In this document: one piece after another, positions 8,658-64,000 of the stretch
Layout: the number at the start of each line of letters is the position of its first letter
Numbering within the stretch: the stretch's first letter is position 1
Origin: an uncultured Clostridia bacterium
Lineage (GTDB): Bacteria; Bacillota; Clostridia; Christensenellales; UBA1242
Direction: 5' to 3'
Assembly (NCBI GenBank): GCA_944383915.1
Contig: CALWRJ010000010.1
Location: 73,178-137,177, forward strand
DNA length: 64,000 bases
The notes under the pieces: generated by a model
What the model saw: only the letters and a program-made list of their open reading frames with translations
Told to the model about the DNA's origin: nothing
Database searches by the model: none
Translations under genes and position numbers: made by a program

Positions 8658-8739
8658 CCGTCTAAATTTTGTTATATAGTGTTTAATTTTTGTAGTTTAG
8701 TGCTTAAATTTGCTTAGAGTAATTAAAAGGGATATTTAT

Positions 8740-19675: not shown

Positions 19676-20779
19676 TTAAATCTTGTGCATTGGGAGAATT
19701 AGATACAAGTAGTCCTCGCTTTCTTGCGGAACGATTACGCAAGGGTGAACAGGGCTACCATATTTAATTTGTACAAATTCATCTGAAATAACGCGCAACG
19801 CATCAGCAAAAAGTCTACCGTTAAATTCAATTTTAAGGTCCGCACCTGAGTGAGTGGTTTGTAAGTGTTCGGTAATGTTTCCAAGTTCACTTTCACTGCT
19901 AATTACCATATCTTTACCATTAATATCAAATTTAACAATAAAGTTGCGGTCAACACGACTCAACAAGCCTGCTCTCTCAATAGTGTCGAGTAAGTGACGG
20001 CGGTTAACATTTGTAATGGTTGTAAAATCTTGCGGTAAAATTTGTTTGTATGAAACATAATCACTTTGCATACCCATAAGACGAGTCATAAGAATTGTGT
20101 CGTCTAGGTTGATTTGCAAGTGGTTTTTCTGTGTGCAAATCTTGATTAATTGGTCGCTATCAGGAAGTAGGCGAACAATTTCAATCAAACATCTTGCGCT
20201 AACGACTATTCCAAATTCCGCACTTTGAGAAGTAATTGGCTTTTTTATAAGTGCCATACGCACACCGTCAAGCGCAACTCCGCGAATCTCGTTTTGCGCC
20301 ACTTCAAGCAAAATTCCGCGTAGCATTGGGCGAGAATCATCTTGTGCAACGGCAACGCTAGCCTTTGTTACTAAATCTTTAAAATTATCACTGCGAATTT
20401 CTACAAATTCTGGCTGGTCTAATGTCTTGGGCTCTGGAAATTCGCTTGCATCTTGGCATTGGAAGTATGCGTTGTTTTCGCCATAAGTAACATCAAGAGT
20501 TTTGTCCCTTAAATTAAATTCTATTTGATCACTGCTAATTTTACTAGCAAAGTCTGCAAAAAATTTCGCAGGAATAACAGCAACCCCAGGTACTTTTACA
20601 TCGGCTCTAATTGATTTTGTAATTGTGAGTTCGAGATCGGTACAAGTAAGCGTTAGTCGGTCGTCTTCTGCCACCATTTTTACACATTCCAAAATTGGAT
20701 TGGTCGTTCTAACCGCAGCGGCCTTAACGACTTTGAGCACTGCATCTGCAAGTTCTAATCCTTGACAACTAAATTTCAT
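19676..20779 (-). CDS. dnaN: DNA polymerase III beta sliding clamp
   Basis: 367 aa, MKFSC...L..A...V, three-domain clamp-like length and pattern. GAGGTG RBS. Confidence 0.92.
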   Translation of the reverse strand: MKFSCQGLELADAVLKVVKAAAVRTTNPILECVKMVAEDDRLTLTCTDLELTITKSIRADVKVPGVAVIPAKFFADFASKISSDQIEFNLRDKTLDVTYGENNAYFQCQDASEFPEPKTLDQPEFVEIRSDNFKDLVTKASVAVAQDDSRPMLRGILLEVAQNEIRGVALDGVRMALIKKPITSQSAEFGIVVSARCLIEIVRLLPDSDQLIKICTQKNHLQINLDDTILMTRLMGMQSDYVSYKQILPQDFTTITNVNRRHLLDTIERAGLLSRVDRNFIVKFDINGKDMVISSESELGNITEHLQTTHSGADLKIEFNGRLFADALRVISDEFVQIKYGSPVHPCVIVPQESEDYLYLILPMHKI

Positions 20780-23666: not shown

Positions 23667-23945
23667 TAGAGTTGGGCAATAGTAAATAGTACGATAATCT
23701 GAGCGCAAAGCGAGTAAGTTACTTTGTGTGTTAAAATCAAAGATATATTTTTAAAAAAGTCGGTTTTTCGTATTATTTTAAATATTACTATTGATACCAA
23801 AATACAGTCGTTTATAACACATAGTCATAAAATTTTGCGGTATAGTTGCTATTTTTAGCGAGTATATTGCAAATTTACTAGATTTAGTATATTTTTAAAA
23901 AGTTTGTTTAATATAAAGTTAGAGGCAAACTAGTAGGAGAGAAAA

Positions 23946-31926: not shown

Positions 31927-31961
31927 TGCATAATACCTATGCATAATACCGTGCATAGTAC
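31927..31961. repeat. 35-bp element with three direct TGCATARTAC repeats
   Basis: tgcataatacc-tatgcataatacc-gtgcatagtac. A near-identical copy lies at 40693-40727. Confidence 0.8.
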
Positions 31962-33917: not shown

Positions 33918-34053
33918 AACTTTTCACCGAAATAATTATATCACTTTTTAATATCTATTTCAAGAGTAAAGGACAAATTTGGTTTTAAGAGATTTTGGTA
34001 TGAAAGTCTGTTGCTATATTGTGTTTTTTAAATCTTAAAAAATAGTTATGCTT

Positions 34054-34223
34054 GTAATAAGAGATAGGGCATATGTAATAAGAGATAGGGCGTGTGCAAG
34101 AAAAGATAGAGTATTTGTATAATAAGAGATAGTATTTGTAATAAAGAGATAGAGTATTTGTAATAAGAGATAGAGCATCTGTAATAGGAGACAGGGCATT
34201 TGTTAATGAGAGATGGGGCGCGT
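34054..34223. repeat. tandem array, 8 x ~21 bp (consensus GTAATAAGAGATAGRGCATNT)
   Basis: Units read directly at 34054, 34075, 34096, 34117, 34138, 34160, 34181 and 34202. Edge units are more diverged. Confidence 0.85.
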
Positions 34224-34291
34224 GTAATTAAATAAAAAATATGTAATTATGTAGATAAGAGTTGAATTAATAAATTTTTTATCATAATAAA

Positions 34292-34520: not shown

Positions 34521-34677
34521 AATTTCTCCTATGTACAATTAAAGATAAAATTTTTTGCGTTATTTTTATAGACGCTTTCAATTAAAAGTCGTATAAAATT
34601 AATTATCATTTTATTTTGATATTTGCTTAAAATTTGATATAATTAAAGAAATGCTAAAATATTTTAGGGGGAATTTT

Positions 34678-38271: not shown

Positions 38272-40512
38272 TTATTTATTATTTATAAAGCGCAAATCAA
38301 TTAAGTTTCTTGTTGCTTGGCGTTTGTCTATTAATTTATTAGAAAATAGGGTAAAATAGCAAGAGGAAATAGTGTGCCTAAATATATTGTATTCGCGTCC
38401 ATCATTTCCTACAAATTTTAAATTTTTGCTAAATTTACAGTTTTTACACGAATTTTTAAATAGCGTTTTAAAAGGGCAGTGGGCAAAGGACATAAGCGAG
38501 TGTTTGCCAAAAGTTAATTGATAAAAGTTTTCGCTAGGAGATTTTCTTTCTTTGCTCCAAATTATTTCACTAACTCCTAAATTTGATAAAATATTAGCGT
38601 CTAAAATATTGTAAACATTCATTCCTAATCCTGCAATAATATTGCGGTTAGTTTTAGTATAAATTAGTCCCGATAAATTATTAATTACTAGACTAAAATC
38701 TGCTGGCAATTTTTCTATTATTTTATTTAAAATTTTAATATCTTTTCCGTTTGATATAATAGGGAGTTCAAGCGCAAAATTTGCTGTATTTTTTATAAAA
38801 TTTTCTTTAATTTTTAGTATTTTCTCTAAGTTGTAACTCAGAGGGTTAATAATTACCAAATCGTTATTCGTGATTTCGCTAATAGGTGAAAGATTATTTT
38901 CATTCACTACATACATATTATTATATTTACGAGCAAATTTTTGTTGCATAGTACCTAAAAAATGTTGCATAGTACTGAATTTTTGGGTATTTTCTGCACT
39001 TTTTATGTTATTTTCATATTTTTCAATTATATCTTGTCTTAACTGCATAGCATCATCACGGCGTGCTTGATTTAATATAGATTTTGGAATAAATAAATTT
39101 TGGGCGGTTATTTTTGCGTTTTCTAAAACAAAATCAGTATCATTAAGTTTGTTAATTTGTGTTAAAATTTCATCTTGCGAAGTGGGTGAATTTTGTGCTC
39201 TTGAAACTATATAATCACTTGTGATTTTTGCGCTAATTTTTCCATCTTTTGTTGTATATAAAAACTCTAATGTAAAGGGCTTATTTTCTTGTGCGTCAAA
39301 AACGCAATCAATACCTAATTTTTTTGAATTACTTAACAAATTTTCCTCAAAAAATTTATCTAGTGTGCGGTATACCGTATAGTTTTGTTTTACTCGCGTT
39401 TTGGAGTATATATTATAGCGATTATCATCTATTTTTTCGATATTTCCGACACCTAAACTTGCGCGTTCATTCTCTTGCTTGTCTAAAAATTTTAAGCCGT
39501 CACCAGAGTGAATTTCTGTATTGAGTTTTAGTGTAATTTTAAATAAATCTTTAAATGGTGTGATTTTTTCTACAAAGCCTATTTTTTCACCTAAATGATT
39601 TTGGATAGTAGGATTAATAATATTATCGGGTGTGCCAGAATCTAGATATGCGCGTTTATTATATTCGCCACGGGCAAAAACTTTCTTTAAAACATTAATT
39701 TCAGTGTTAAAATTGATTTTTTCGTTATTTTTTAGGGCATCAACAGCAAATCGATAACTTTTCACGCTTTGAGCAACATAAGCGGGTCGGCGTAAGCGCC
39801 CTTCTATTTTTAGACTATCAACGCCGGCATTTTTTAATTCTGCTAAATTTTCAATTAAACATAAATCACGCGCGGAGAGCAAGAACCCTGTGCCGATTTT
39901 TTTATTGTCAATGTAGGCAGTATAGGGGAGTCGGCAAAGTTGTAGACATTGTCCGCGGTTTCCGCTTTTGTCGTGTTCGAGTGCGCTGAGATAACAATTT
40001 CCGCTAAAAGCAACGCAAAGTGCGCCTTGCACAAAATACTCAATTTCAAGCCCTGTTTCCTTCTTTATTGCGCGAATGTCATCTAACTTTGTTTCTCTCG
40101 AAAGTACTACGCGAGTAAAACCAAGTTCTTTTGCTATTTTTGCTCCTTCAACATTATGGATACCCAATTGTGTACTTGCGTGAATTTCAACATTATCAAA
40201 AGCATCGCGTAAAATATTTGCTACCGCCAAATCTTGTACGATAAACGCATCTGCTCGTGCTTGTATGCATTTTTTAGCAAATTCAAGAAAAGATGGTATT
40301 TCATCATCTTTTAGTAAAGTATTTGTAGTAATGTATACCTTTACGCCGAAAAGGTGGGCGCGCTCAATAAAGAAACGAATATTTTCTAAATTAAAAAAAG
40401 TTGCTTTTGCGCGTGCGTTAAAATCGCCGAGCCCTAAATAAATAGCATCTGCACCATTATTTATTGCGGCTTCAAAACTTTCACCATCGCCACAGGGCGC
40501 TAAAACTTCCAT
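38272..40512 (-). CDS. U32-family peptidase (long form)
   Basis: MEVLAPCGD..., E..VQGALCVAFSGNCYLS, LKIEGRLRRPAYV motifs of peptidase U32. Confidence 0.88.
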   Translation of the reverse strand: MEVLAPCGDGESFEAAINNGADAIYLGLGDFNARAKATFFNLENIRFFIERAHLFGVKVYITTNTLLKDDEIPSFLEFAKKCIQARADAFIVQDLAVANILRDAFDNVEIHASTQLGIHNVEGAKIAKELGFTRVVLSRETKLDDIRAIKKETGLEIEYFVQGALCVAFSGNCYLSALEHDKSGNRGQCLQLCRLPYTAYIDNKKIGTGFLLSARDLCLIENLAELKNAGVDSLKIEGRLRRPAYVAQSVKSYRFAVDALKNNEKINFNTEINVLKKVFARGEYNKRAYLDSGTPDNIINPTIQNHLGEKIGFVEKITPFKDLFKITLKLNTEIHSGDGLKFLDKQENERASLGVGNIEKIDDNRYNIYSKTRVKQNYTVYRTLDKFFEENLLSNSKKLGIDCVFDAQENKPFTLEFLYTTKDGKISAKITSDYIVSRAQNSPTSQDEILTQINKLNDTDFVLENAKITAQNLFIPKSILNQARRDDAMQLRQDIIEKYENNIKSAENTQKFSTMQHFLGTMQQKFARKYNNMYVVNENNLSPISEITNNDLVIINPLSYNLEKILKIKENFIKNTANFALELPIISNGKDIKILNKIIEKLPADFSLVINNLSGLIYTKTNRNIIAGLGMNVYNILDANILSNLGVSEIIWSKERKSPSENFYQLTFGKHSLMSFAHCPFKTLFKNSCKNCKFSKNLKFVGNDGREYNIFRHTISSCYFTLFSNKLIDKRQATRNLIDLRFINNK

Positions 40513-40692: not shown

Positions 40693-40727
40693 CGCATAAT
40701 ACTATGCATAATACCTATGCATAGTAC
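40693..40727. repeat. second copy of the 35-bp triple TGCATARTAC element
   Basis: cgcataatac-tatgcataatacc-tatgcatagtac, about 180-215 bp upstream of the U32 peptidase start. Confidence 0.8.
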
Positions 40728-45682: not shown

Positions 45683-45690
45683 AATTAATA

Positions 45691-46306
45691 AATTAGCAAT
45701 TAGCAATGAGCAATTAGCAGTTGTTGTGCGCGTGCGCGCAAGCCTTTACGCTTCGCCGTTCGGCTACGCGTAAATTAGGAATTAAAAATTAAATTAATTT
45801 TTATCATATTATGCAAAAATTTTTGCAAGTAGCAAAATCTTTTTGCAAGATAAAATTCCGCTACGCGCGGTGCGGCGGGGGTAGAGCCCCCGCTGGCTCA
45901 TTACGCCTTCGGCGAGTACTTTATCGCTATGCTCAAATTTTGAATTTTGAATTATGGCTGGAATACCTAGTTATAATATTTTAAGTAATAACTCCTTAAC
46001 TGCTAATTGCTAATTGCTAATTCTCGCAAAGCGAGTAAGACTGCTAATTGCTAATTGCTAATTCTCGCAAAGCGAGTAAGACTGCTAATTGCTAATTGCC
46101 TTTACGCTTCGCCGTTCGGCTTCGCTTAATTTTGAATTTTGAATTTTGAATTTTGAATTAAGGCTGGAATTATTTAAATATAATATAATTTTATACTCAG
46201 CAATAACTGCTAATTGCTAATTGCTAATTGCTAATTTGCGCTACGCGCATAGGCTTGCGCGCACGCGCCCCGTAATTCCTAATTACTAATTCCTAATTTC
46301 TAATTA
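45691..46306. repeat. mosaic repeat island B (heptamer arrays, triloop hairpins, GC-rich modules, AT-rich cores)
   Basis: Read directly. (AATTAGC)4 at 45691; GC module at 45721-45770; 16-bp palindrome tgcaaaaatttttgca at 45812; three-hairpin module at 45855-45935; (GAATTTT)n at 45936 and 46128; (GCTAATT)n at 46000, 46043, 46084 and 46208; 41-bp tandem units at 46023 and 46064; (TAATTNC)5 at 46273. Confidence 0.9.
45938..45999. repeat. right arm of the 62-bp perfect inverted repeat
   Basis: Exact reverse complement of 43256-43317. Confidence 0.85.
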
Positions 46307-46330
46307 ATTTTTAGTGATAACTTTTTTATT

Positions 46331-49374: not shown

Positions 49375-49909
49375 TTGCATAGCACTATGCTTTAGTGCTA
49401 TGCAAAAATTAGCAATTAGCAATTAGCAATTAGCAGTTAAGGAGTTATTTCTTAAAATATTTATAATCTAATAAATTTCAGCCTTGATTCAAAATTACAA
49501 GAAAAATACGAGTTTTTATATGCATAGTACCTAAAATTTGTGGTTTTATGCATTATTTTTAGTGCATAGTACTATAAAATTTTGAACTTGTGTTCAAAAT
49601 TTAATTAGCAATTAGCAGTCTTACTTGCTACGCAAGAATTAGCAATTAGCAATTAGCAGTCTTACTTGCTACGCAAGAATTAGCAATTAGCAATTAGCAG
49701 TTATTGTGCGCGTGCGCGCAAGCCTATGCGCTTCGCTTAATTTTTGCCTTGGAGTATGCAATGCACACGGAAAGCCAGCCAATAGTTAGAGTAATTGTTA
49801 AAGTGAGTGGCTCACGGCTGAATTTTGAATTTTGAATTACGGAGTTATTTCCAAAAGTCATCTTATATTTAGAAATACCTTCCTTAACTGCTAATTGCTA
49901 ATTGCTAAT
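49375..49909. repeat. mosaic repeat island C
   Basis: 11-bp-stem palindrome ttgcatagcac/gtgctatgcaa at 49375; (AATTAGC)n; TGCATAGTAC motifs at 49520 and 49562; palindrome aaattttgaac/gttcaaaattt; two 41-bp tandem units with CTTGC-TAC-GCAAG hairpins at 49623 and 49664; GC module at 49703; (GAATTTT)n at 49820; (GCTAATT)3 at 49888. Confidence 0.9.
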
Positions 49910-49974
49910 TTGTAAAAGGTTGCTTTAATTTTTATTTTATGCTAAAATTGAATAAAAATTACAAAGGATAAAGT

Positions 49975-56873: not shown

Positions 56874-59800
56874 ATGTTTTCAACATTAGGTGCTGATGCA
56901 GTAAATGCAATTGTTAACTTTATAGGAGACCTCTTAGGAAGTTTAACTTTTGACCAATTATTTTATATTTTTGTCGGTATTATTGCTGGCATTATCTTAA
57001 TTAGCGGTATTCGTCTTATTTGGTGTTATGAAAACCGCGCTATTAGGGCGATGCGAAGCGTCAACAAGTATTTAAAGAACAATCCAAAAGTTACCGATGA
57101 TAATTTAGTTGAGTTCCATAGTAAGATGAAACAACTTCCGCGCCGTATGCGTGACCGTTGGCAACTTTTTATGCTTGAGCGCGAAGGGAGTCCTAGTAGG
57201 TATATGACTGTTGAATACTGTGTTAAGCGTCCCTTATATAACAGTGCAGTTTTGATGAGCCAAAAACAAGTTTGGTATTTATCTATAATTTTGGCAATTT
57301 TAGGCTTTATTTTTGGGCTTTCAAACATTTCAATTAATGGACTAGGGGCTGACCTTGCGGGGATTTTACTTAACTCATTTGTTATCCCTGCCATTGTGCT
57401 AATTTTAGGTAGTATCTATGTAATGATTTTGCAAATTAGATACAACGCAATCAACCACGACTTTTACGATATGTTTACAAACTTTGTCCGCAATATCGAC
57501 AAAGCCACAAACACGATGCCAGATTATGTAGACTACGAACTCCTATTTACCAAAAAAGAAATCAACAAAGGTATTCCTGTTTTGCGTGAGTACCTAGAAA
57601 AGCGCGCTATGGAGGAGCAAAGACTTCTTGAAAAAGCAAAAAGGGAAGAGGTTAACCACAGCCCGTACGACTTTTCAAGTCTTGGCGTAAACGGTGCGCA
57701 ACTTATTGAACGCGCGGTAAACGAGAGTGAGCAATTCTTGACGCACAAAATTCAACTTCAAAATGAAATTAATGACCTCGAAAAGCAAGTGCAAAAGTCT
57801 GATGCCAATATGGAGGACATCGAGCGCGAGGCAAACAAGAAATTGCAGGCAATTAAGGAAAACCTCGAAAGACTTGATAAGGCTATGAACGAAACTACAA
57901 ACCGTGTAGAAATTAGTTATAACCGCCGTCAAGCATCTGCCGAGATGGACAAAAAACTAATGCTAGAAAAAGACCTCGAGAATATGTTAAACAAGGAAAA
58001 AGTTGCGCAAGATGCCCTAAAAGTTGAGATTCAAAAGCGCAAAGAGGAAATCGAGGAAAACAAAAAAGAAGTCGAGGAAGCGCTCAAATCGGAGTACGAT
58101 ACTTTTGCTACCAAAGTTTATGACGAGTTAAACGAGAAAATTACGCGCGATAACTCGGAGCAGTTGCACGAAATGGAAATGACTATCGCGCGCTTAAAGG
58201 CGAAGGTAAAAGAGTTTACTCGCGATATCGAAAAGAAAGATTCTCTAATTGAGGCGCGAAACCTTGAACTTGACAATATGCGCCAGCAAGTTAGCAAGCA
58301 AAAAGGAAAATCGAAGTCCAAAAAAGACTTTGGGCAAGATTATATAAAGGCGCAAGACAATGTGCCAGAAGGGACTATTAATGCGGTGCAAGTCGACTAC
58401 AACGACACCGTTCCGCAAGAAAATCAAGTGGCTGAAATTCAAAATGCTGAAAACTATGCGCAACCTAACGAGCAGTACGATTCTAGCATTTATCAGCCGA
58501 CTGAACCGCAGTACGATGTGCCACCACAAGACAATCAGCCCGACTATGCAGGGTATGACCAATATAATCAGCCTTATGACAATTCGCAATACAACGGCGA
58601 GTACACAGAAGGCGCTCCATATAATTATGACGGGCAACAATATGCGGAAAATGGCGAGCCGTATAATTACGAAATGCCACAGGGTGACGCTCAACCTGTT
58701 GAAAATGGTGAGCAAAATGGTGAAAATGGCGATTTAAATAGCGGACAGGGCGAGTTGCAACCTGAAAATGCGCAAAACTTTGACAATCAAAACGCAAATT
58801 ACGATGCGCAAAACTATGATGTAAATGGCTATTACGACCAAAACAATGTTGATTATAACAATCAATATGGACAGCCTTACCAAGACGCGCAAAATTATTA
58901 CGCACCGACTGACCAAACTGGAGAGCAGGGCGGAATTTATATGCCCGAGGACACAACCGATTTCAGCGTTGCGGAAAATCAAGCAAATGACGGACAACAG
59001 TACGCAGAAAATGGCGAAAATGCGCCTGTGGAAAATGTTGCGTCACAAGAAAATATCGAAGGTGTGCCTGCTGATAATGTTGCGCCACAAAATGTTGGTG
59101 ACGCAAACGGCGAGCAACCTGTTGAATTAACTCCTGAAAGCGCTCAACAACAAGCGGGAAGTGATGAACTTGTCGTAAGTGACGAAAATGTTAGCCTAGA
59201 CAATTCGGCTAACGCAAATACTGACACTGTAAATCTCGACAGCGACACCATTTCTCTTGACGAAGCGCCCGTTTCATTGGACGAGCAATCACCTGTTTCT
59301 CTTGATGAAAAGGCAAATAAAGAAAACGAGAGCGAAACAATTTCGCTTGACGAAAGCGCTACTGAACCTAAAAATGAAGCAAAAGAGAGCGAGCAAGCCG
59401 AAGTTAGTCTTGACGAAAAGAAAGACAGTGACGAGATAAAACCAGCAAAGAAAACGACTGCTAAAAAGTTTACTGACGGTAAGTCTAAATCTAGCGACAC
59501 TGAAAGCGAGAAAAAAGACGAGAAAGCAGACAAAGACGAGAAGGGAAGCGTTAAGGACGACAAAGCCGAAAAAGACGATTCTTTAAACGATGACGACAAA
59601 GGCAAAAAGGCAGATAAGGATGCCGACAAGCAAGAGCCAAAAGAGAGTAAGAAAAAATATGTAGAAAATGACGATTTGGAGGCTTTGCAGAAAAAGATTG
59701 AGGAGGAAAACGCTAGATTAAAGAAACAGCAAGAGGAGTTGCGCGCTCAAATTGATAAGACTTTGGCAACTATGGAAAAAGCCGAAAACGCGACTAAAGC

Positions 59801-59966
59801 CGAACGCACTCGTAATATTAAGAAAATTAAAGAAATGATTGCAAAACTTAAAGAGGAGGCGGAAACAGCAAAGGCGCGCGGAGCAAGCAAGACTCAAATT
59901 AATAAAATTAATAAGTCCGCTGCCGAACTTTTGAAAGTCCTAGCAGACTATCAATCTAAAAAATAG
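56874..59966 (+). CDS. large membrane-anchored coiled-coil protein with Q/N/Y/D-rich and (V/I)SLDE-repeat low-complexity regions
   Basis: GGGAG RBS. 4-5 N-terminal TM helices, ~300-aa coiled coil, prion-like Q/N/Y segment, seven [VI]-[SN]-L-D repeats, K/D/E tail. Confidence 0.6.
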   Translation: MFSTLGADAVNAIVNFIGDLLGSLTFDQLFYIFVGIIAGIILISGIRLIWCYENRAIRAMRSVNKYLKNNPKVTDDNLVEFHSKMKQLPRRMRDRWQLFMLEREGSPSRYMTVEYCVKRPLYNSAVLMSQKQVWYLSIILAILGFIFGLSNISINGLGADLAGILLNSFVIPAIVLILGSIYVMILQIRYNAINHDFYDMFTNFVRNIDKATNTMPDYVDYELLFTKKEINKGIPVLREYLEKRAMEEQRLLEKAKREEVNHSPYDFSSLGVNGAQLIERAVNESEQFLTHKIQLQNEINDLEKQVQKSDANMEDIEREANKKLQAIKENLERLDKAMNETTNRVEISYNRRQASAEMDKKLMLEKDLENMLNKEKVAQDALKVEIQKRKEEIEENKKEVEEALKSEYDTFATKVYDELNEKITRDNSEQLHEMEMTIARLKAKVKEFTRDIEKKDSLIEARNLELDNMRQQVSKQKGKSKSKKDFGQDYIKAQDNVPEGTINAVQVDYNDTVPQENQVAEIQNAENYAQPNEQYDSSIYQPTEPQYDVPPQDNQPDYAGYDQYNQPYDNSQYNGEYTEGAPYNYDGQQYAENGEPYNYEMPQGDAQPVENGEQNGENGDLNSGQGELQPENAQNFDNQNANYDAQNYDVNGYYDQNNVDYNNQYGQPYQDAQNYYAPTDQTGEQGGIYMPEDTTDFSVAENQANDGQQYAENGENAPVENVASQENIEGVPADNVAPQNVGDANGEQPVELTPESAQQQAGSDELVVSDENVSLDNSANANTDTVNLDSDTISLDEAPVSLDEQSPVSLDEKANKENESETISLDESATEPKNEAKESEQAEVSLDEKKDSDEIKPAKKTTAKKFTDGKSKSSDTESEKKDEKADKDEKGSVKDDKAEKDDSLNDDDKGKKADKDADKQEPKESKKKYVENDDLEALQKKIEEENARLKKQQEELRAQIDKTLATMEKAENATKAERTRNIKKIKEMIAKLKEEAETAKARGASKTQINKINKSAAELLKVLADYQSKK

Positions 59967-60021
59967 TCGCTAAAGTTAGTTAAATAAACTTAAAAAAGTA
60001 ACTTATTAATAGCGAAAAATA

Positions 60022-60057
60022 AAAGAACTTATCTAAATGTGGATAAGTTCTTTTTTT
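60022..60057 (+). terminator. rho-independent terminator
   Basis: agaacttatc / gataagttct stem plus T7. Confidence 0.7.
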
Positions 60058-60128
60058 GATTGATGTAAAATTAGTCAAATAAAAACTGTTTTGCTTTTTA
60101 AATAATTTCCCCGTGTCGCTTTTCGTGT

Positions 60129-60446
60129 TTAGAGTAGGGTGTCTAAATCGGCTCTGTATTTTTTTAAATCAACGCGCCCGCGCCAAATTTCGACTCCCTC
60201 GGCTAATAATTTTTTAGCCTGCATATTTGAGCCACCAAACGCATAGTTTGGCGCAAGACGACCAGCACTATTTACGACCCTATGACACGGAATATTTATA
60301 GGGTCTGTGTTTGAGTGTAGCGCGTTTCCAACCGCACGCGCACCGCCATTCACTCCAACCGCGCGCGCAATGTCGCCATATGTCGAAACTTTGCCTTTTG
60401 GTATTTTTGCCACCACTTTAAAAACTCGTTCTCTAAAATTTTCCAT
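60129..60446 (-). CDS. MGMT-family protein (methylated-DNA-protein-cysteine methyltransferase DNA-binding domain only)
   Basis: IPKGKVSTYGDIA...IPCHRVV with the PCHR active-site motif. ATG at 60446 preferred over the listed TTG at 60461. No clear RBS for either. Confidence 0.8.
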   Translation of the reverse strand: MENFRERVFKVVAKIPKGKVSTYGDIARAVGVNGGARAVGNALHSNTDPINIPCHRVVNSAGRLAPNYAFGGSNMQAKKLLAEGVEIWRGRVDLKKYRADLDTLL

Positions 60447-60466
60447 AGTAAGAGTATACAATAAAA

Positions 60467-61082
60467 ATTAGGAATTAGCAAGCAACTCGCTATGCGAGAA
60501 TTAGCAATTAGCAGGTAGCAATTAGCAGTCTTACTCGCTACGCTCAAATTAGCAATTAGCAATCTTACTTGCTTCGCAAGAATTAGCAATGAGCAATTAG
60601 CAATTAGCAGTTGTTGTGCGCGTGCGCGCAAGCATATGTGCGTAGCGCAATTTTGAATTTTGAATTTTGAATTATTGCAGGAATATCTAATAATTTTTTG
60701 CTCTTTTTAAACCATTTGCAAATTTTAGAACATTTGTTCGTTGGTACAAATAAAGTATTAACTTATAAATTAAGCACATTAAAACCTATGTTAATTAATA
60801 AATTAATTATAGTACTATGAGAGTTTTACTCTCATGATATTTCCTTGATTTTTAGTGGTAGTACTTTTAATTGTTGTTTGTTATAAAGCTATGAGAGTTT
60901 TACTCTCATCGCTATAAGTTAAATTAGGAATTAGTAATTAGGAATTTTGGTCGCTGACGCTCGAATTTTGAATTTTGAATTAGGAATTATGGCTAGAAAA
61001 TATTTAAAAATATTTTTAAATGCTTGCGCGCACGCGCACAACAACTGCTAATTGCTAATTGCTAATTCGCAACGAAGTTGCG
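60467..61082. repeat. mosaic repeat island D, left part
   Basis: Hairpins CTCGC-TAT-GCGAG (60486), CTTGC-TTC-GCAAG (60568) and CGCAAC-GAA-GTTGCG (61068). Also (AATTAGC)n arrays, GC module at 60611-60648, (GAATTTT)n at 60650 and 60964, two copies of ctatgagagttttactctcat at 60816 and 60889, and (GCTAATT)3 at 61046. Confidence 0.9.
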
Positions 61083-61110
61083 GAAAGCGCAGCCGAAAGG
61101 CGAAGCGTAA

Positions 61111-61209
61111 AAAAACAACCTAAAAACAACCGAAATTCAACCGAAAAACAACCTAAAAACAACCCAAATTCAACCCAAAAACAACCCAAAAACAACCCAA
61201 AAACAACCA
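61111..61209. repeat. tandem array, 9 x 11 nt (AAAWWCAACCN)
   Basis: Units counted base by base: aaaaacaacct, aaaaacaaccg, aaattcaaccg, and so on. Confidence 0.9.
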
Positions 61210-61463
61210 ATTGAAAATGAAATCGTGATCGTAAACGGAAATTCCGAACGATAAAAAAAATAAAAACTTTCTCTCTTTCTATGGCTTGTTGGGTGGCGAT
61301 AAAATGCTAATCTAATATTTATAATAATTTTAAATTTTAGTGGTGATAAAAACTTGTTAAAACAGTTTTAATGGATTTCATTTATATCACTTTTTAGAAA
61401 TATAATTCTAAATTTTTCGTCTATGAATGAATGGCTTTAATATAATCTAAATCACTTACAAAA

Positions 61464-61595
61464 AACCAAGAAAATAACCAAGAATAAAACCAGCAACATA
61501 ACCAGAGAAACAACCAGAGAAACAACCAAGAAAACAACCAGAGAAACAACCAAGAAAACAACCAGAAAAACAACCAGAGAAACAACCAGAAAAAC
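61464..61595. repeat. tandem array, 11 x 12 nt (AACCAGAGAAAC-like)
   Basis: Units counted base by base. Followed by a GGAAA-rich run and a ~60-bp tail shared with the 61111 array. Confidence 0.9.
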
Positions 61596-61740
61596 AACCA
61601 AAGGAAAAGGGAAACGGAAAGGAAAACGGAAACGGAAATTCCGAACGATAAATAAATAAAAACTTTCTCTCTTTCTATGCTTTGCGGTGGGGGAGAATAA
61701 AAAATCTTGTACAACAACATAATTATTACTCGCTACGCTC

Positions 61741-61855
61741 GAATTTTGAATTTTGAATTAGGAATTAAGGCTGAAATTATTAAATATAATATAATTTTAT
61801 ACTCATCCTTAACTGCTAATTGCTACCTGCTAATTGCTAATTCTCGCAAAGCGAG
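61741..61855. repeat. mosaic element copy (GAATTTT array - AAGGCTGAAAT core - GCTAATT array - CTCGC-AAA-GCGAG hairpin)
   Basis: The core aaggctgaaattattaaatataatataattttatactca is nearly identical to 46161-46199. Confidence 0.85.
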
Positions 61856-61874
61856 CAAACCGAATGGCTCAGCG

Positions 61875-62942
61875 TTAAGCAAAGTTTTCTAGTTTTAATC
61901 TTACTTCCTCTTTGTGTAGGGCATCGAGCATTTCGTCAATGTCGCCCTGCATAAAGTTGTTTATCGAGTGTAGACTCAAGCCTATTCTGTGGTCGGTAAC
62001 GCGGTCTTGCGGGAAGTTGTAAGTGCGAATGCGTTCACTTCTATCCCCAGTGCCTACTTGACTTTTTCGCTGTTGTGCGTTTTCATTAATTGCTTTTTGA
62101 CGCGCCATATCCTCTAGTTTTGCGCGCAAAATTTTCATCGCGCGGTCTTTATTTTTAATTTGACTTCGCTCGTCTTGGCAAGTTACGACAATTCCAGTTG
62201 GCAAGTGCGTTATGCGAATGGCGGAGTCGGTCGTGTTAACCCCTTGTCCACCGTGCCCGCCTGCGCGGTATGTGTCGATGCGCAAATCTTTGTCGTTAAT
62301 ATCAACATCGCTTTCCTCGACTTCAGGTAAAACTGCCACGGTAACGGTGCTTGTATGCACGCGCCCTTGCGATTCGGTCTCTGGCACTCGTTGAACGCGA
62401 TGCACACCGCTTTCCCATTTAAGAGCGCGGTAAGCCCCAACACCATCGACAAGCATTACGCCTTCTTTAAGTCCGCCAACTTCAGTTTCGCTGTACTCAA
62501 TAACCTCAACTTTCCACCCTTTTTTATCAGCATAACGGCGGTACATATTAAATAATTCCGCGCCAAAAAGCGATGCTTCATCACCACCAGCGGCTGGCCT
62601 AACTTCGATATAAACACTGTTGTCATCGTTCTTATCTTTCGGCAAAAGCATTATTCTAGCCTCGTCCTCAAGCCTTTCAATTTCCGCGCTCGCCTCGTCC
62701 TTTTCGACTTGCGCCATCTCGCTCAATTCAGCGTCCGTACTTTCCCCTAAAACAGCAACCGCCGAATCCAGTTTTGCCTTCGCCTTCTCGTATTTTTCGT
62801 ACAAATCATTGTATTCGCTAAGTGCAGAATGTTCTTTTGCGATTTTTGTGTATTGCGCTAAATCGGCAATAACATTAGGGTCGCACATTTTTTCGCCTAA
62901 CTCTTTGTATTTTTGTACGAATGGTAAAATTTTTTCAATCAT
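61875..62942 (-). CDS. prfA: peptide chain release factor 1
   Basis: PxT-type domain and RAGGHGGQGVNTTDSAIRITHLPTG GGQ motif. 355 aa. Confidence 0.95.
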   Translation of the reverse strand: MIEKILPFVQKYKELGEKMCDPNVIADLAQYTKIAKEHSALSEYNDLYEKYEKAKAKLDSAVAVLGESTDAELSEMAQVEKDEASAEIERLEDEARIMLLPKDKNDDNSVYIEVRPAAGGDEASLFGAELFNMYRRYADKKGWKVEVIEYSETEVGGLKEGVMLVDGVGAYRALKWESGVHRVQRVPETESQGRVHTSTVTVAVLPEVEESDVDINDKDLRIDTYRAGGHGGQGVNTTDSAIRITHLPTGIVVTCQDERSQIKNKDRAMKILRAKLEDMARQKAINENAQQRKSQVGTGDRSERIRTYNFPQDRVTDHRIGLSLHSINNFMQGDIDEMLDALHKEEVRLKLENFA

Positions 62943-63760: not shown

Positions 63761-63827
63761 TTTTTGATTTAAAAATTTAAATTTGTTTTTATTTTATAAT
63801 TTATTTGATACTTTTTTGGCTTAAAAA

Positions 63828-64000
63828 TTCCCGCTACGCGAAAACATTTAAGCAAAGTAAACAAATTTTATTAATTTCAGCCACAATTCCTAATTTCTAA
63901 TTTCTAATTCCTAATTATCTTTGCACTCCGTGCAGGGCGGGGATAGAGCCCCCGCTGGCTCGATAGCGCGCAAGCGCGCGTACTTTATCGCTGGCGCTCA
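63828..64000. repeat. mosaic repeat island E (runs off the window)
   Basis: attcccgctacgcg at 63828, (TAATTNC)4 at 63886-63916, and a three-hairpin GC module at 63921-64000 homologous to 45855-45935. Confidence 0.85.

Follow-up and report, generated by a model that had tools for sequence, protein, structure and literature searches.

Probable accretion of hairpin-forming heptamer repeats in the prfA/MGMT spacer of an uncultured Clostridia bacterium

Why does a gene-dense Clostridia genome keep 1.4 kb of DNA without a gene between prfA, encoding peptide chain release factor 1, and a gene of the MGMT family? The question is raised by a 64-kb stretch of contig CALWRJ010000010.1 from an uncultured Clostridia bacterium (the window; GC ~35%, coding ~82%). 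The best named relatives of its prfA are likewise in metagenome-assembled genomes of Clostridia. From the start codon of the MGMT-family gene (ATG at 60446, minus strand) to the stop codon of prfA (61875-61877), the spacer covers 60447-61874, i.e., 1,428 bp. It is the largest gap of the window, in which the median gap measures 131 bp and the runner-up 813 bp. The original prediction, made from the sequence alone, had described a 1.4-kb gene-free stretch, and our analysis agrees, as no credible open reading frame (ORF) lies within it. We consider it probable that the stretch is a non-coding spacer, located at a prfA/MGMT junction specific to this lineage and inflated about ten-fold by the accretion of mosaic, hairpin-forming repeats. 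The idea of a hotspot for the accretion of a repeat family, one of two interpretations offered originally, gained support from three sides: the family is present in three other spacers, two orthologous spacers in a relative are free of repeats, and the region lies on a lineage-specific junction.

A repeat family in the spacers of one lineage

The three further spacers with the same mosaic family are 45684-46330, 49375-49915 and 63780-64000; no member was found in the first 45 kb, and all four repeat loci are within the last 20 kb of the window. The family consists of AATT-NNN heptamer arrays (AATTAGC, AATTAGG, AATTTTG and their complements), GC hairpins of 13-17 nt that directly abut the AATT of an array, a GC module, two further GC-rich modules, and larger units that we call T-elements. 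The double heptamer unit AATTAGCAATTAGC (≤1 mismatch) occurs 30 times in the window, vs 0.13 times expected, always in intergenic DNA. GC hairpins, which within the repeat loci are all located in spacers, number 28 in 2.9 kb of repeat loci (9.8/kb) vs 32 in the first 45 kb (0.71/kb). Those adjoining an array, pre-selected as perfect, have four different stems with two-sided changes at 4/5 pairs.

Aligning the T-elements yielded seven dispersed copies of ~110-150 nt, which are imperfect palindromes of ~130 nt with heptamer arrays as arms and fold as a single long hairpin (z-scores of -3.3 and -4.5). Copies T2 and T6 have an AT-rich core in common in spite of their distance of 15 kb, and entire elements have therefore been copied between spacers. 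Beside an equivalent hairpin the heptamer varies, being AATTTTG, AATTAGC or AATTCCT, and array plus hairpin form perfect higher-order tandems with a 41-nt period at 45999-46099 and 49603-49701. This exchange of heptamers at equivalent positions, together with the higher-order tandems, points to slippage and unequal recombination. Array orientation is mixed across the loci and not polar, and the GC-rich module GCGGGGGTAGAGCCCCCGCTGGCTC is found at 45875-45899 and again at 63937-63961.

The closest available genome (87% identity for prfA, 69% for AddA) keeps the gene order HAD / Zn-peptidase / ... / AddB-AddA / 1010-aa protein, which allowed us to compare two of the inflated spacers directly. 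Between HAD and Zn-peptidase, the relative has 74 bp with one terminator vs 648 bp in the window; upstream of AddB it has ~230 bp vs 601 bp. Neither of these two spacers of the relative contains a period-7 array, and the repeats are therefore lineage-specific additions. The inserts of the window are still flanked by a recognisable ancestral terminator of the upstream gene and by a recognisable AddB promoter motif, TTTATGCTAAAATT; the additions land between the terminator of one gene and the promoter of the next. Small versions of the family exist elsewhere in the relative, flanking rpmE.

At the prfA/MGMT spacer itself, gene order differs. In the relative, a canonical terminator, an ordinary spacer of 320 bp and a different gene come after prfA, and LemA comes after the 1010-aa gene. 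Its MGMT is flanked by clpX and dnaA (fetched locus L135, 9960-10700) with a 350-bp spacer before dnaA, and both prfA and MGMT are within ~30 kb of dnaA. These different neighbours place the 1.4-kb spacer on a gene-order breakpoint. No orthologue of the prfA/MGMT spacer was found in the relatives retrieved, where other genes adjoin prfA and MGMT. The comparison of spacer length in relatives, suggested with the original prediction, was thus informative for the two neighbouring spacers, which are short and repeat-free there, while the prfA/MGMT spacer has no orthologue to measure. As a side observation, dnaN (DNA polymerase III beta subunit) is present at 19676-20779 of the window without an adjoining dnaA; the closest relative, too, has no dnaN after its dnaA, which suggests that the two genes are separated in this lineage.

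These patterns suggest how such a spacer might grow. Arrays would expand by replication slippage, and unequal recombination between arrays would produce the tandems of higher order, in which array and hairpin recur together with a period of 41 or 34 nt. Copying similar to that of REP sequences or miniature inverted-repeat transposable elements (MITEs), or gene conversion between hairpin-forming copies, could disperse entire elements among spacers, and recombination between dispersed copies may favour rearrangements such as the prfA/MGMT junction. A local direct duplication of ~400 bp adds two A/C-rich minisatellites with 11- and 12-nt units. The elements occupy a neutral zone between the end of a gene and the next core promoter.

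Modules and borders of the spacer

The following features were delineated in the spacer and at its borders (window coordinates; "no strand" where none applies):

60129-60446, minus strand: MGMT-family gene, 105 aa with PCHR active-site motif (Pfam PF01035, E=5.9e-28); left border of the spacer
60453-60481, minus strand: MGMT promoter-like site from a consensus scan, -35 TTGCTA (60481-60476), 17-nt spacer, -10 TATACT (60458-60453)
60462-60612, plus strand: AATTAGG/AATTAGC heptamer arrays with short GC hairpins, 34-nt higher-order period (TRF, repeat search)
60486-60529, no strand: left arm of the outer inverted repeat (partner 61812-61855, 44 nt, 98%)
60588-60635, no strand: left arm of the inner inverted repeat, heptamer array plus GC module GTGCGCGTGCGCGCAAGC (partner 61020-61067, 48 nt, 98%)
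60610-60649: GC module
60637-60673, plus strand: hairpin TGTGCG-TAG-CGCA followed by (AATTTTG)3.6 at 60649-60673 (TRF)
60674-60915, no strand: AT-rich, mostly single-copy segment with two identical hairpins (repeat search, self-BLAST)
60916-61067, plus strand: T-element copy T5, with which the mosaic element 60916-61110 begins (alignment of seven copies)
61068-61110, plus strand: hairpin CGCAAC-GAA-GTTGCG and GC-rich module GCGCAGCCGAAAGGCGAAGCGTAAA
61111-61310, plus strand: unit U1, an 11-nt A/C-rich array AAAAACAACCN x8.9 (61111-61208) and a conserved tail of ~100 nt, GGAAATTCCGAACGAT...AAAAACTTTCTCTCTTTCTATG (TRF)
61311-61459, no strand: AT-rich single-copy spacer between U1 and U2 (unmatched in self-BLAST)
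61460-61705, plus strand: unit U2, a 12-nt array x11.8 (61460-61601), (AAACGG)n and tail; direct paralogue of U1 at a spacing of ~396/397 nt
61728-61855, plus strand: T-element copy T6, imperfect palindrome of ~130 nt ending 19 nt before the prfA stop (alignment)
61875-62942, minus strand: prfA (homologues with PF03462 and PF00472); right border of the spacer

Every module named in the original prediction was recovered at its place, and the coordinates proved accurate apart from one spacing between hairpins. The statement that the region is composed entirely of nested repeat modules went too far: 829 of its 1,413 nt (~59%) match another copy, and the rest is AT-rich single-copy DNA. According to self-BLAST against region and window, these single-copy parts are 60686-60814, 60836-60888, 61284-61475 and 61680-61729. 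The AT-rich DNA between U1 and U2 had no significant match in relatives.

Within the first array, GC hairpins are located at 60486-60498 (CTCGC-TAT-GCGAG), 60534-60546 (degenerate) and 60568-60580 (CTTGC-TTC-GCAAG). Both arms of the outer inverted repeat contain the rare variant heptamer AGGTAGC and pair with each other in the minimum-free-energy fold of the entire region. The inner-arm module recurs at 45691-45743 and 49678-49725, and the GC-rich module GCGCAGCCGAAAGGCGAAGCGTAAA is found again, inverted, at 45745-45772 and 46100-46125. A counterpart of the hairpin TGTGCG-TAG-CGCA at 46237-46249 abuts an array of the AATTAGC type instead. T5 comprises, in this order, an AATTAGG array, a degenerate hairpin, (GAATTTT)2.7, GAATTATGGCTAGAAA, an AT palindrome, an inverted GC module (61020-61042) and (TGCTAAT)3. 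The twin 21-nt hairpins CTATGAGAGTTTTACTCTCAT (60815-60835 and 60889-60909) are identical as predicted, with 0 expected by chance, but are spaced by 74 nt, not 73. Compared with shuffles they fold with z-scores of -3.9 and -6.1, and no further copy was found in the rest of the window or in any fetched locus. Between U1 and U2, identity is 78% for the arrays and 94% for the tails, which fold no better than shuffles (z +0.5 to -1.3). Searches for relatives of the tail returned none in IMG/VR and a single chance match, on an unrelated contig, in the JGI metagenomes.

A protein-coding gene can be dismissed. A Pfam search of the 10 spacer ORFs of at least 30 aa gave 0 matches, and a 1-nt indel between U1 and U2 (spacing 397 vs 396) falls inside the longest of these ORFs, which has 99 aa and is on the minus strand. 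The listed ORFs had been taken for translations of repeats, correctly so: the long ones are open only through the composition of the A/C-rich arrays, which lack T or A and so the bases needed for stop codons.

The start of the MGMT-family gene follows the -10 by 6 nt, a leaderless layout, and as originally remarked no ribosome-binding site is visible: a Shine-Dalgarno sequence is missing, though most genes of the window have one. In the relative, the clpX terminator is immediately followed by an extended -10 of MGMT with the same geometry, TGGTATCAT-ACGCAC-ATG (6 nt). Hence the -10 as well as the leaderless arrangement is ancestral, and both were conserved although the gene moved. The only promoter part that comes from the repeats is the -35 TTGCTA, the complement of the AATTAGCAA heptamer module. 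The suggestion that the spacer supplies the MGMT promoter thus applies to this -35-like hexamer and not to the -10 or the layout; the first heptamer module may have donated a -35 to an ancestral leaderless -10. Over the entire spacer, promoter-like sites are at chance level (6 vs 6.4 expected). At the other border, T6 occupies the place of the relative's prfA terminator, 19 nt after the prfA stop, and with a predicted fold of -35.5 kcal/mol (z=-4.5, minus strand) it probably acts as prfA 3' hairpin or terminator.

Two more genes of the window resemble MGMT in their starts. The DUF2804 gene (34651) has a leaderless-type site (34630-34653) with TATAAT, 7 nt and ATG and no Shine-Dalgarno sequence, and the latter is also missing from prmC (start 63760). 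The MGMT-family gene is further neighboured by a gene for a 1030-aa low-complexity protein (56874-59966) without Pfam domain; in another assembly (locus L132, 576-3644) it was called as two ORFs of 430 and 579 aa, with a single mismatch to the window. Around this convergent pair, at ~59,900-61,000, the GC skew changes its sign from + to -, and its cumulative curve peaks near 60-61 kb. Minus-strand genes have a skew of -0.15 to -0.19 right of the switch and near 0 further left. The switch, beyond which only 4 kb of sequence lie, may correspond to a terminus, to the boundary of an inversion or to a chimeric join.

Other tandem motifs of the window were recorded as well. About eight tandem 21-nt units TTGTAATAAGAGATAGGGCAT are located at 34052-34232, in a spacer of 733 bp that precedes the DUF2804 gene, and shorter 21-nt doublets with a TTG...TATAGT look at 8663-8711, 23829-23876 and 38776-38816. 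A 13-nt motif, TGCATAATACCTA (variant TGCATAGTAC), is tandemly arranged in spacers at 31927-31961, 40694-40727 and 49515-49600 and constitutes a candidate regulator-binding site because it is kept in the relative's pre-AddB spacer (locus L130, 6350-6385).

Alternative explanations

Several points weigh against repeat accretion as the origin of the spacer. Accretion is directly seen at two neighbouring spacers only and not at the prfA/MGMT spacer, and the suggested promoter and terminator functions are predictions from consensus matches and folding. No transposase (including Y1_Tnp) or other mobilising gene was detected among the ~50 proteins of the 64-kb window, and no consistent target-site duplication around the T-elements. 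About 40% of the spacer is single-copy AT-rich DNA, and units U1 and U2 have no relatives anywhere we searched. Finally, the 100% pairing of the hairpins arises by construction, from their pre-selection as perfect.

Among the alternatives, the one that survives best is an assembly artefact, in which shared repeats of 40-50 nt led the assembler to join genuine MGMT and prfA sides, or to collapse or expand the interior; the 1.4 kb would then consist of at least two separate repeat loci strung together. Three assemblies made independently from other samples contain an identical MGMT locus, with the exact MGMT protein and its flanks (0-1 mismatch over 1.1-3.6 kb), which shows that the junction on the MGMT side is real, as is the relocation of the gene. 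All three assemblies end inside the first array (at window positions 60541, 60541 and 60522; the first 95 nt of the spacer are identical in L132 and L133, up to 60541), and the internal join of the spacer is therefore unverified. A prmC contig from a fourth sample also stops inside a repeat locus (locus D). An artefact would further be compatible with the 98-100% identity of spacer modules to other loci and to each other, and with the change of both gene order and GC-skew sign at about this place, since a chimeric join would give the same pattern. However, in producing a contig of 214 kb the assembler resolved many loci of this kind, ordinary reads are longer than the repeats, and single-copy AT-rich segments as well as U1 and U2 link the repeat modules. 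The position of MGMT next to the 1030-aa gene was independently confirmed and hence a real rearrangement occurred. We regard a misassembled spacer as unlikely.

Less probable still, and in our view doubtful, is a function of the arrays in protein binding, with phased heptamers and 11/12-bp arrays as operator, centromere or nucleoid-organising sites. There are precedents: the ribbon-helix-helix protein omega of pSM19035 binds heptad arrays, and R1 parC has 11-bp iterons. By analogy, the contiguous 7-bp units in direct and inverted orientation and the arrays of 11-12-bp units could be read in the same way. The strict 7-nt period with its invariant AATT core, the occurrence of arrays in both orientations, the periods of 11 and 12 nt, which are near one helical turn, and the overlap of the arrays with the MGMT -35 position would all fit. 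Yet no partition, replication or ribbon-helix-helix gene adjoins the spacer, which in contrast to these systems lacks a cognate gene nearby as well as any plasmid or phage similarity. At equivalent positions, arrays differ freely in length and in the heptamer of which they are made, the relative's orthologous spacers contain no such arrays, and identical arrays in unrelated phyla and viruses argue for a sequence-intrinsic origin.

The second interpretation offered by the original prediction, a region transcribed into a long structured non-coding RNA (or, in a variant, into several small RNAs), was not upheld and appears very unlikely. Sub-elements do fold far better than shuffles (z -3.3 to -6.1), the fold of the whole region pairs the inverted repeats, and hairpin stems show two-sided changes. 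All this structure is explained by inverted repeats at the DNA level. Rfam 15 (including OLE, GOLLD, ROOL, HEARO and raiA) gave no match in the entire window at the gathering threshold; at E≤5, two chance-level matches (E about 3) appeared in 59.9-62.0 kb, both outside the spacer. No tRNA or tmRNA was found in the spacer and no conservation in relatives, the U tails scored z +0.5 to -1.3, and promoter-like sites did not exceed expectation.

A replication terminus or fork-trap/dif region, with repeats clustering where the replichores meet, is the least credible of these alternatives and extremely improbable. The cumulative skew peak, the skew of minus-strand genes differing right vs left and the position of all four repeat loci in the last 20 kb would be in line with it. 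Against this, only 4 kb lie beyond the switch, no dif of the B. subtilis type was found at up to 3 mismatches, and array orientations are mixed; prfA and MGMT are within ~30 kb of dnaA in the relative, a better fit to a rearrangement boundary.

Other identities were rejected. A plasmid or phage iteron or centromere is contradicted by missing similarity to mobile replicons (no match of the spacer in distant-mode blastn against 72,556 plasmids and 50,697 phages) and by the absence of a rep or par gene nearby. An origin of replication does not fit 0 DnaA boxes TTATCCACA (≤1 mismatch) in 60462-61874, a window without dnaA and a skew maximum where an origin would give the opposite signal. A single perfect DnaA-box 9-mer exists in the window, at 60038-60046, in a bidirectional terminator hairpin (60021-60054) between the 1030-aa gene and MGMT; it is probably there by chance, because the window-wide count does not exceed expectation (21 vs 15 +/- 4). 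CRISPR arrays are excluded by contiguous 7-, 11- and 12-nt units without spacers. The GC module contains GCGCGTG, the Lactococcus Chi sequence; with n=28, 1.5- to 5-fold over Markov expectations and 5 in repeat loci, this lead was dropped. Resemblances of the heptamers to CodY boxes or telomeres, judged by eye, were poor matches.

Heptamer arrays elsewhere and significance

If accretion of repeats is the probable explanation, from which kind of repeats did the spacer grow? Exact (AATTAGC)n arrays of ~3 copies were found in at least 119 stretches of species-representative genomes, among the matches listed in Cyanobacteria, Acidobacteriota, Bacteroidota, Planctomycetota, Myxococcota, Patescibacteria and many Clostridia. 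They also exist in 24 viral contigs of IMG/VR, including metagenome-assembled genomes (MAGs) of giant viruses. Control heptamers of the same composition had 1, 7, 15 and 115 matches in IMG/VR, and AATTAGC is therefore frequent but not unique. Among the matches listed, perfect arrays of at least 3 copies in the fetched loci numbered 249 at period 7 vs at most 8 at periods 5, 6 and 8-11. In the same set, 36 of 102 (AATTAGC)n arrays had a related inverted array within 250 nt, compared with 10 that had a direct one and 0 in shuffles, and paired inverted arrays often flanked a GC hairpin. An unrelated Ruminococcus MAG (L068) contains tandem [AATTAGC x4 + hairpin] units like those of the window.

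The arrays of the spacer, with three or more tandem 7-nt units above chance in non-coding DNA, qualify as heptamer simple sequence repeats (SSRs). An excess of heptamer repeats in bacteria has been described and its mechanism is unexplained (PMC4679880); examples are the TAACTGA repeats of Beggiatoaceae, Cyanobacteria and Bacteroidetes (MacGregor 2015, PMC4679880) and, as summarised in PMC4679880, long SSRs (Mrazek et al. 2007) and the short tandemly repeated repetitive sequences (STRRs) of cyanobacteria. Shared features are intergenic tandem 7-nt units, often at start or stop codons, a sporadic phylogeny and the preference for period 7. Unlike in SSRs and STRRs, the arrays here are part of larger palindromic or mosaic elements with GC hairpins, and several AATT-NNN heptamers of related sequence can stand in for one another at equivalent positions.

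In other respects the family resembles REP, BIME and REPIN sequences of Enterobacteria and Pseudomonas. Its short, GC-rich imperfect palindromes are confined to spacers and exist in many copies, form mosaic clusters with other short motifs in both orientations, are often located just after stop codons as potential 3' hairpins, and are lineage-specific and variable between relatives. However, the hairpins measure 13-17 nt, are each embedded in a heptamer array and have no sequence similarity to REPs, and no RAYT (an IS200/IS605-like Y1 transposase) was present among the ~50 proteins of the window. Where a REPIN is an inverted doublet of REPs, T-elements fold as single long hairpins, and inverted pairs of arms exist; these arms are heptamer arrays and not two REPs. 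With MITEs and the modular repeats BOX, RUP and Correia of Firmicutes and Neisseria they have in common the ~130-nt imperfect palindrome dispersed in several spacers, and with BOX, i.e., boxA-(boxB)n-boxC, the modular build with a tandemly amplifiable middle. They differ from MITEs in having microsatellite arrays as arms instead of fixed terminal repeats, and neither a parent insertion sequence nor a terminal inverted repeat with target-site duplication was identified. The small dispersed repeats of Nostoc, reportedly described by Elhai et al. in 2008, are said to be tiny hairpins inside repeat arrays, as here.

Intergenic repeat clutter and an excess of heptamers are already known; the new element is a REP/BIME/MITE-like mosaic built on heptamer microsatellites. 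A more far-reaching idea, which we rate as speculative and rather unlikely, is that the combination of heptamer array and hairpin represents the local case of widespread, previously undescribed tiny mobile or self-propagating palindromes with heptamer-microsatellite arms. In that case, a hairpin-directed copying that also drives rearrangements could have left the arrays as its footprints or use them as its targets.

For annotation, the spacer should be labelled as an intergenic repeat cluster and not as a gene or RNA locus, and the contig as unverified across it. For the organism, the locus provides a clean example of a small, gene-dense Clostridia genome that tolerates the ten-fold inflation of particular spacers. 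It shows repeats coinciding with rearrangement junctions, where they may take over the place of a terminator and provide a leaderless gene that has moved with its -35. Finally, it adds a case from gut or rumen Firmicutes to the unexplained bacterial preference for 7-nt tandem repeats and shows heptamer arrays as the arms of palindromic elements.

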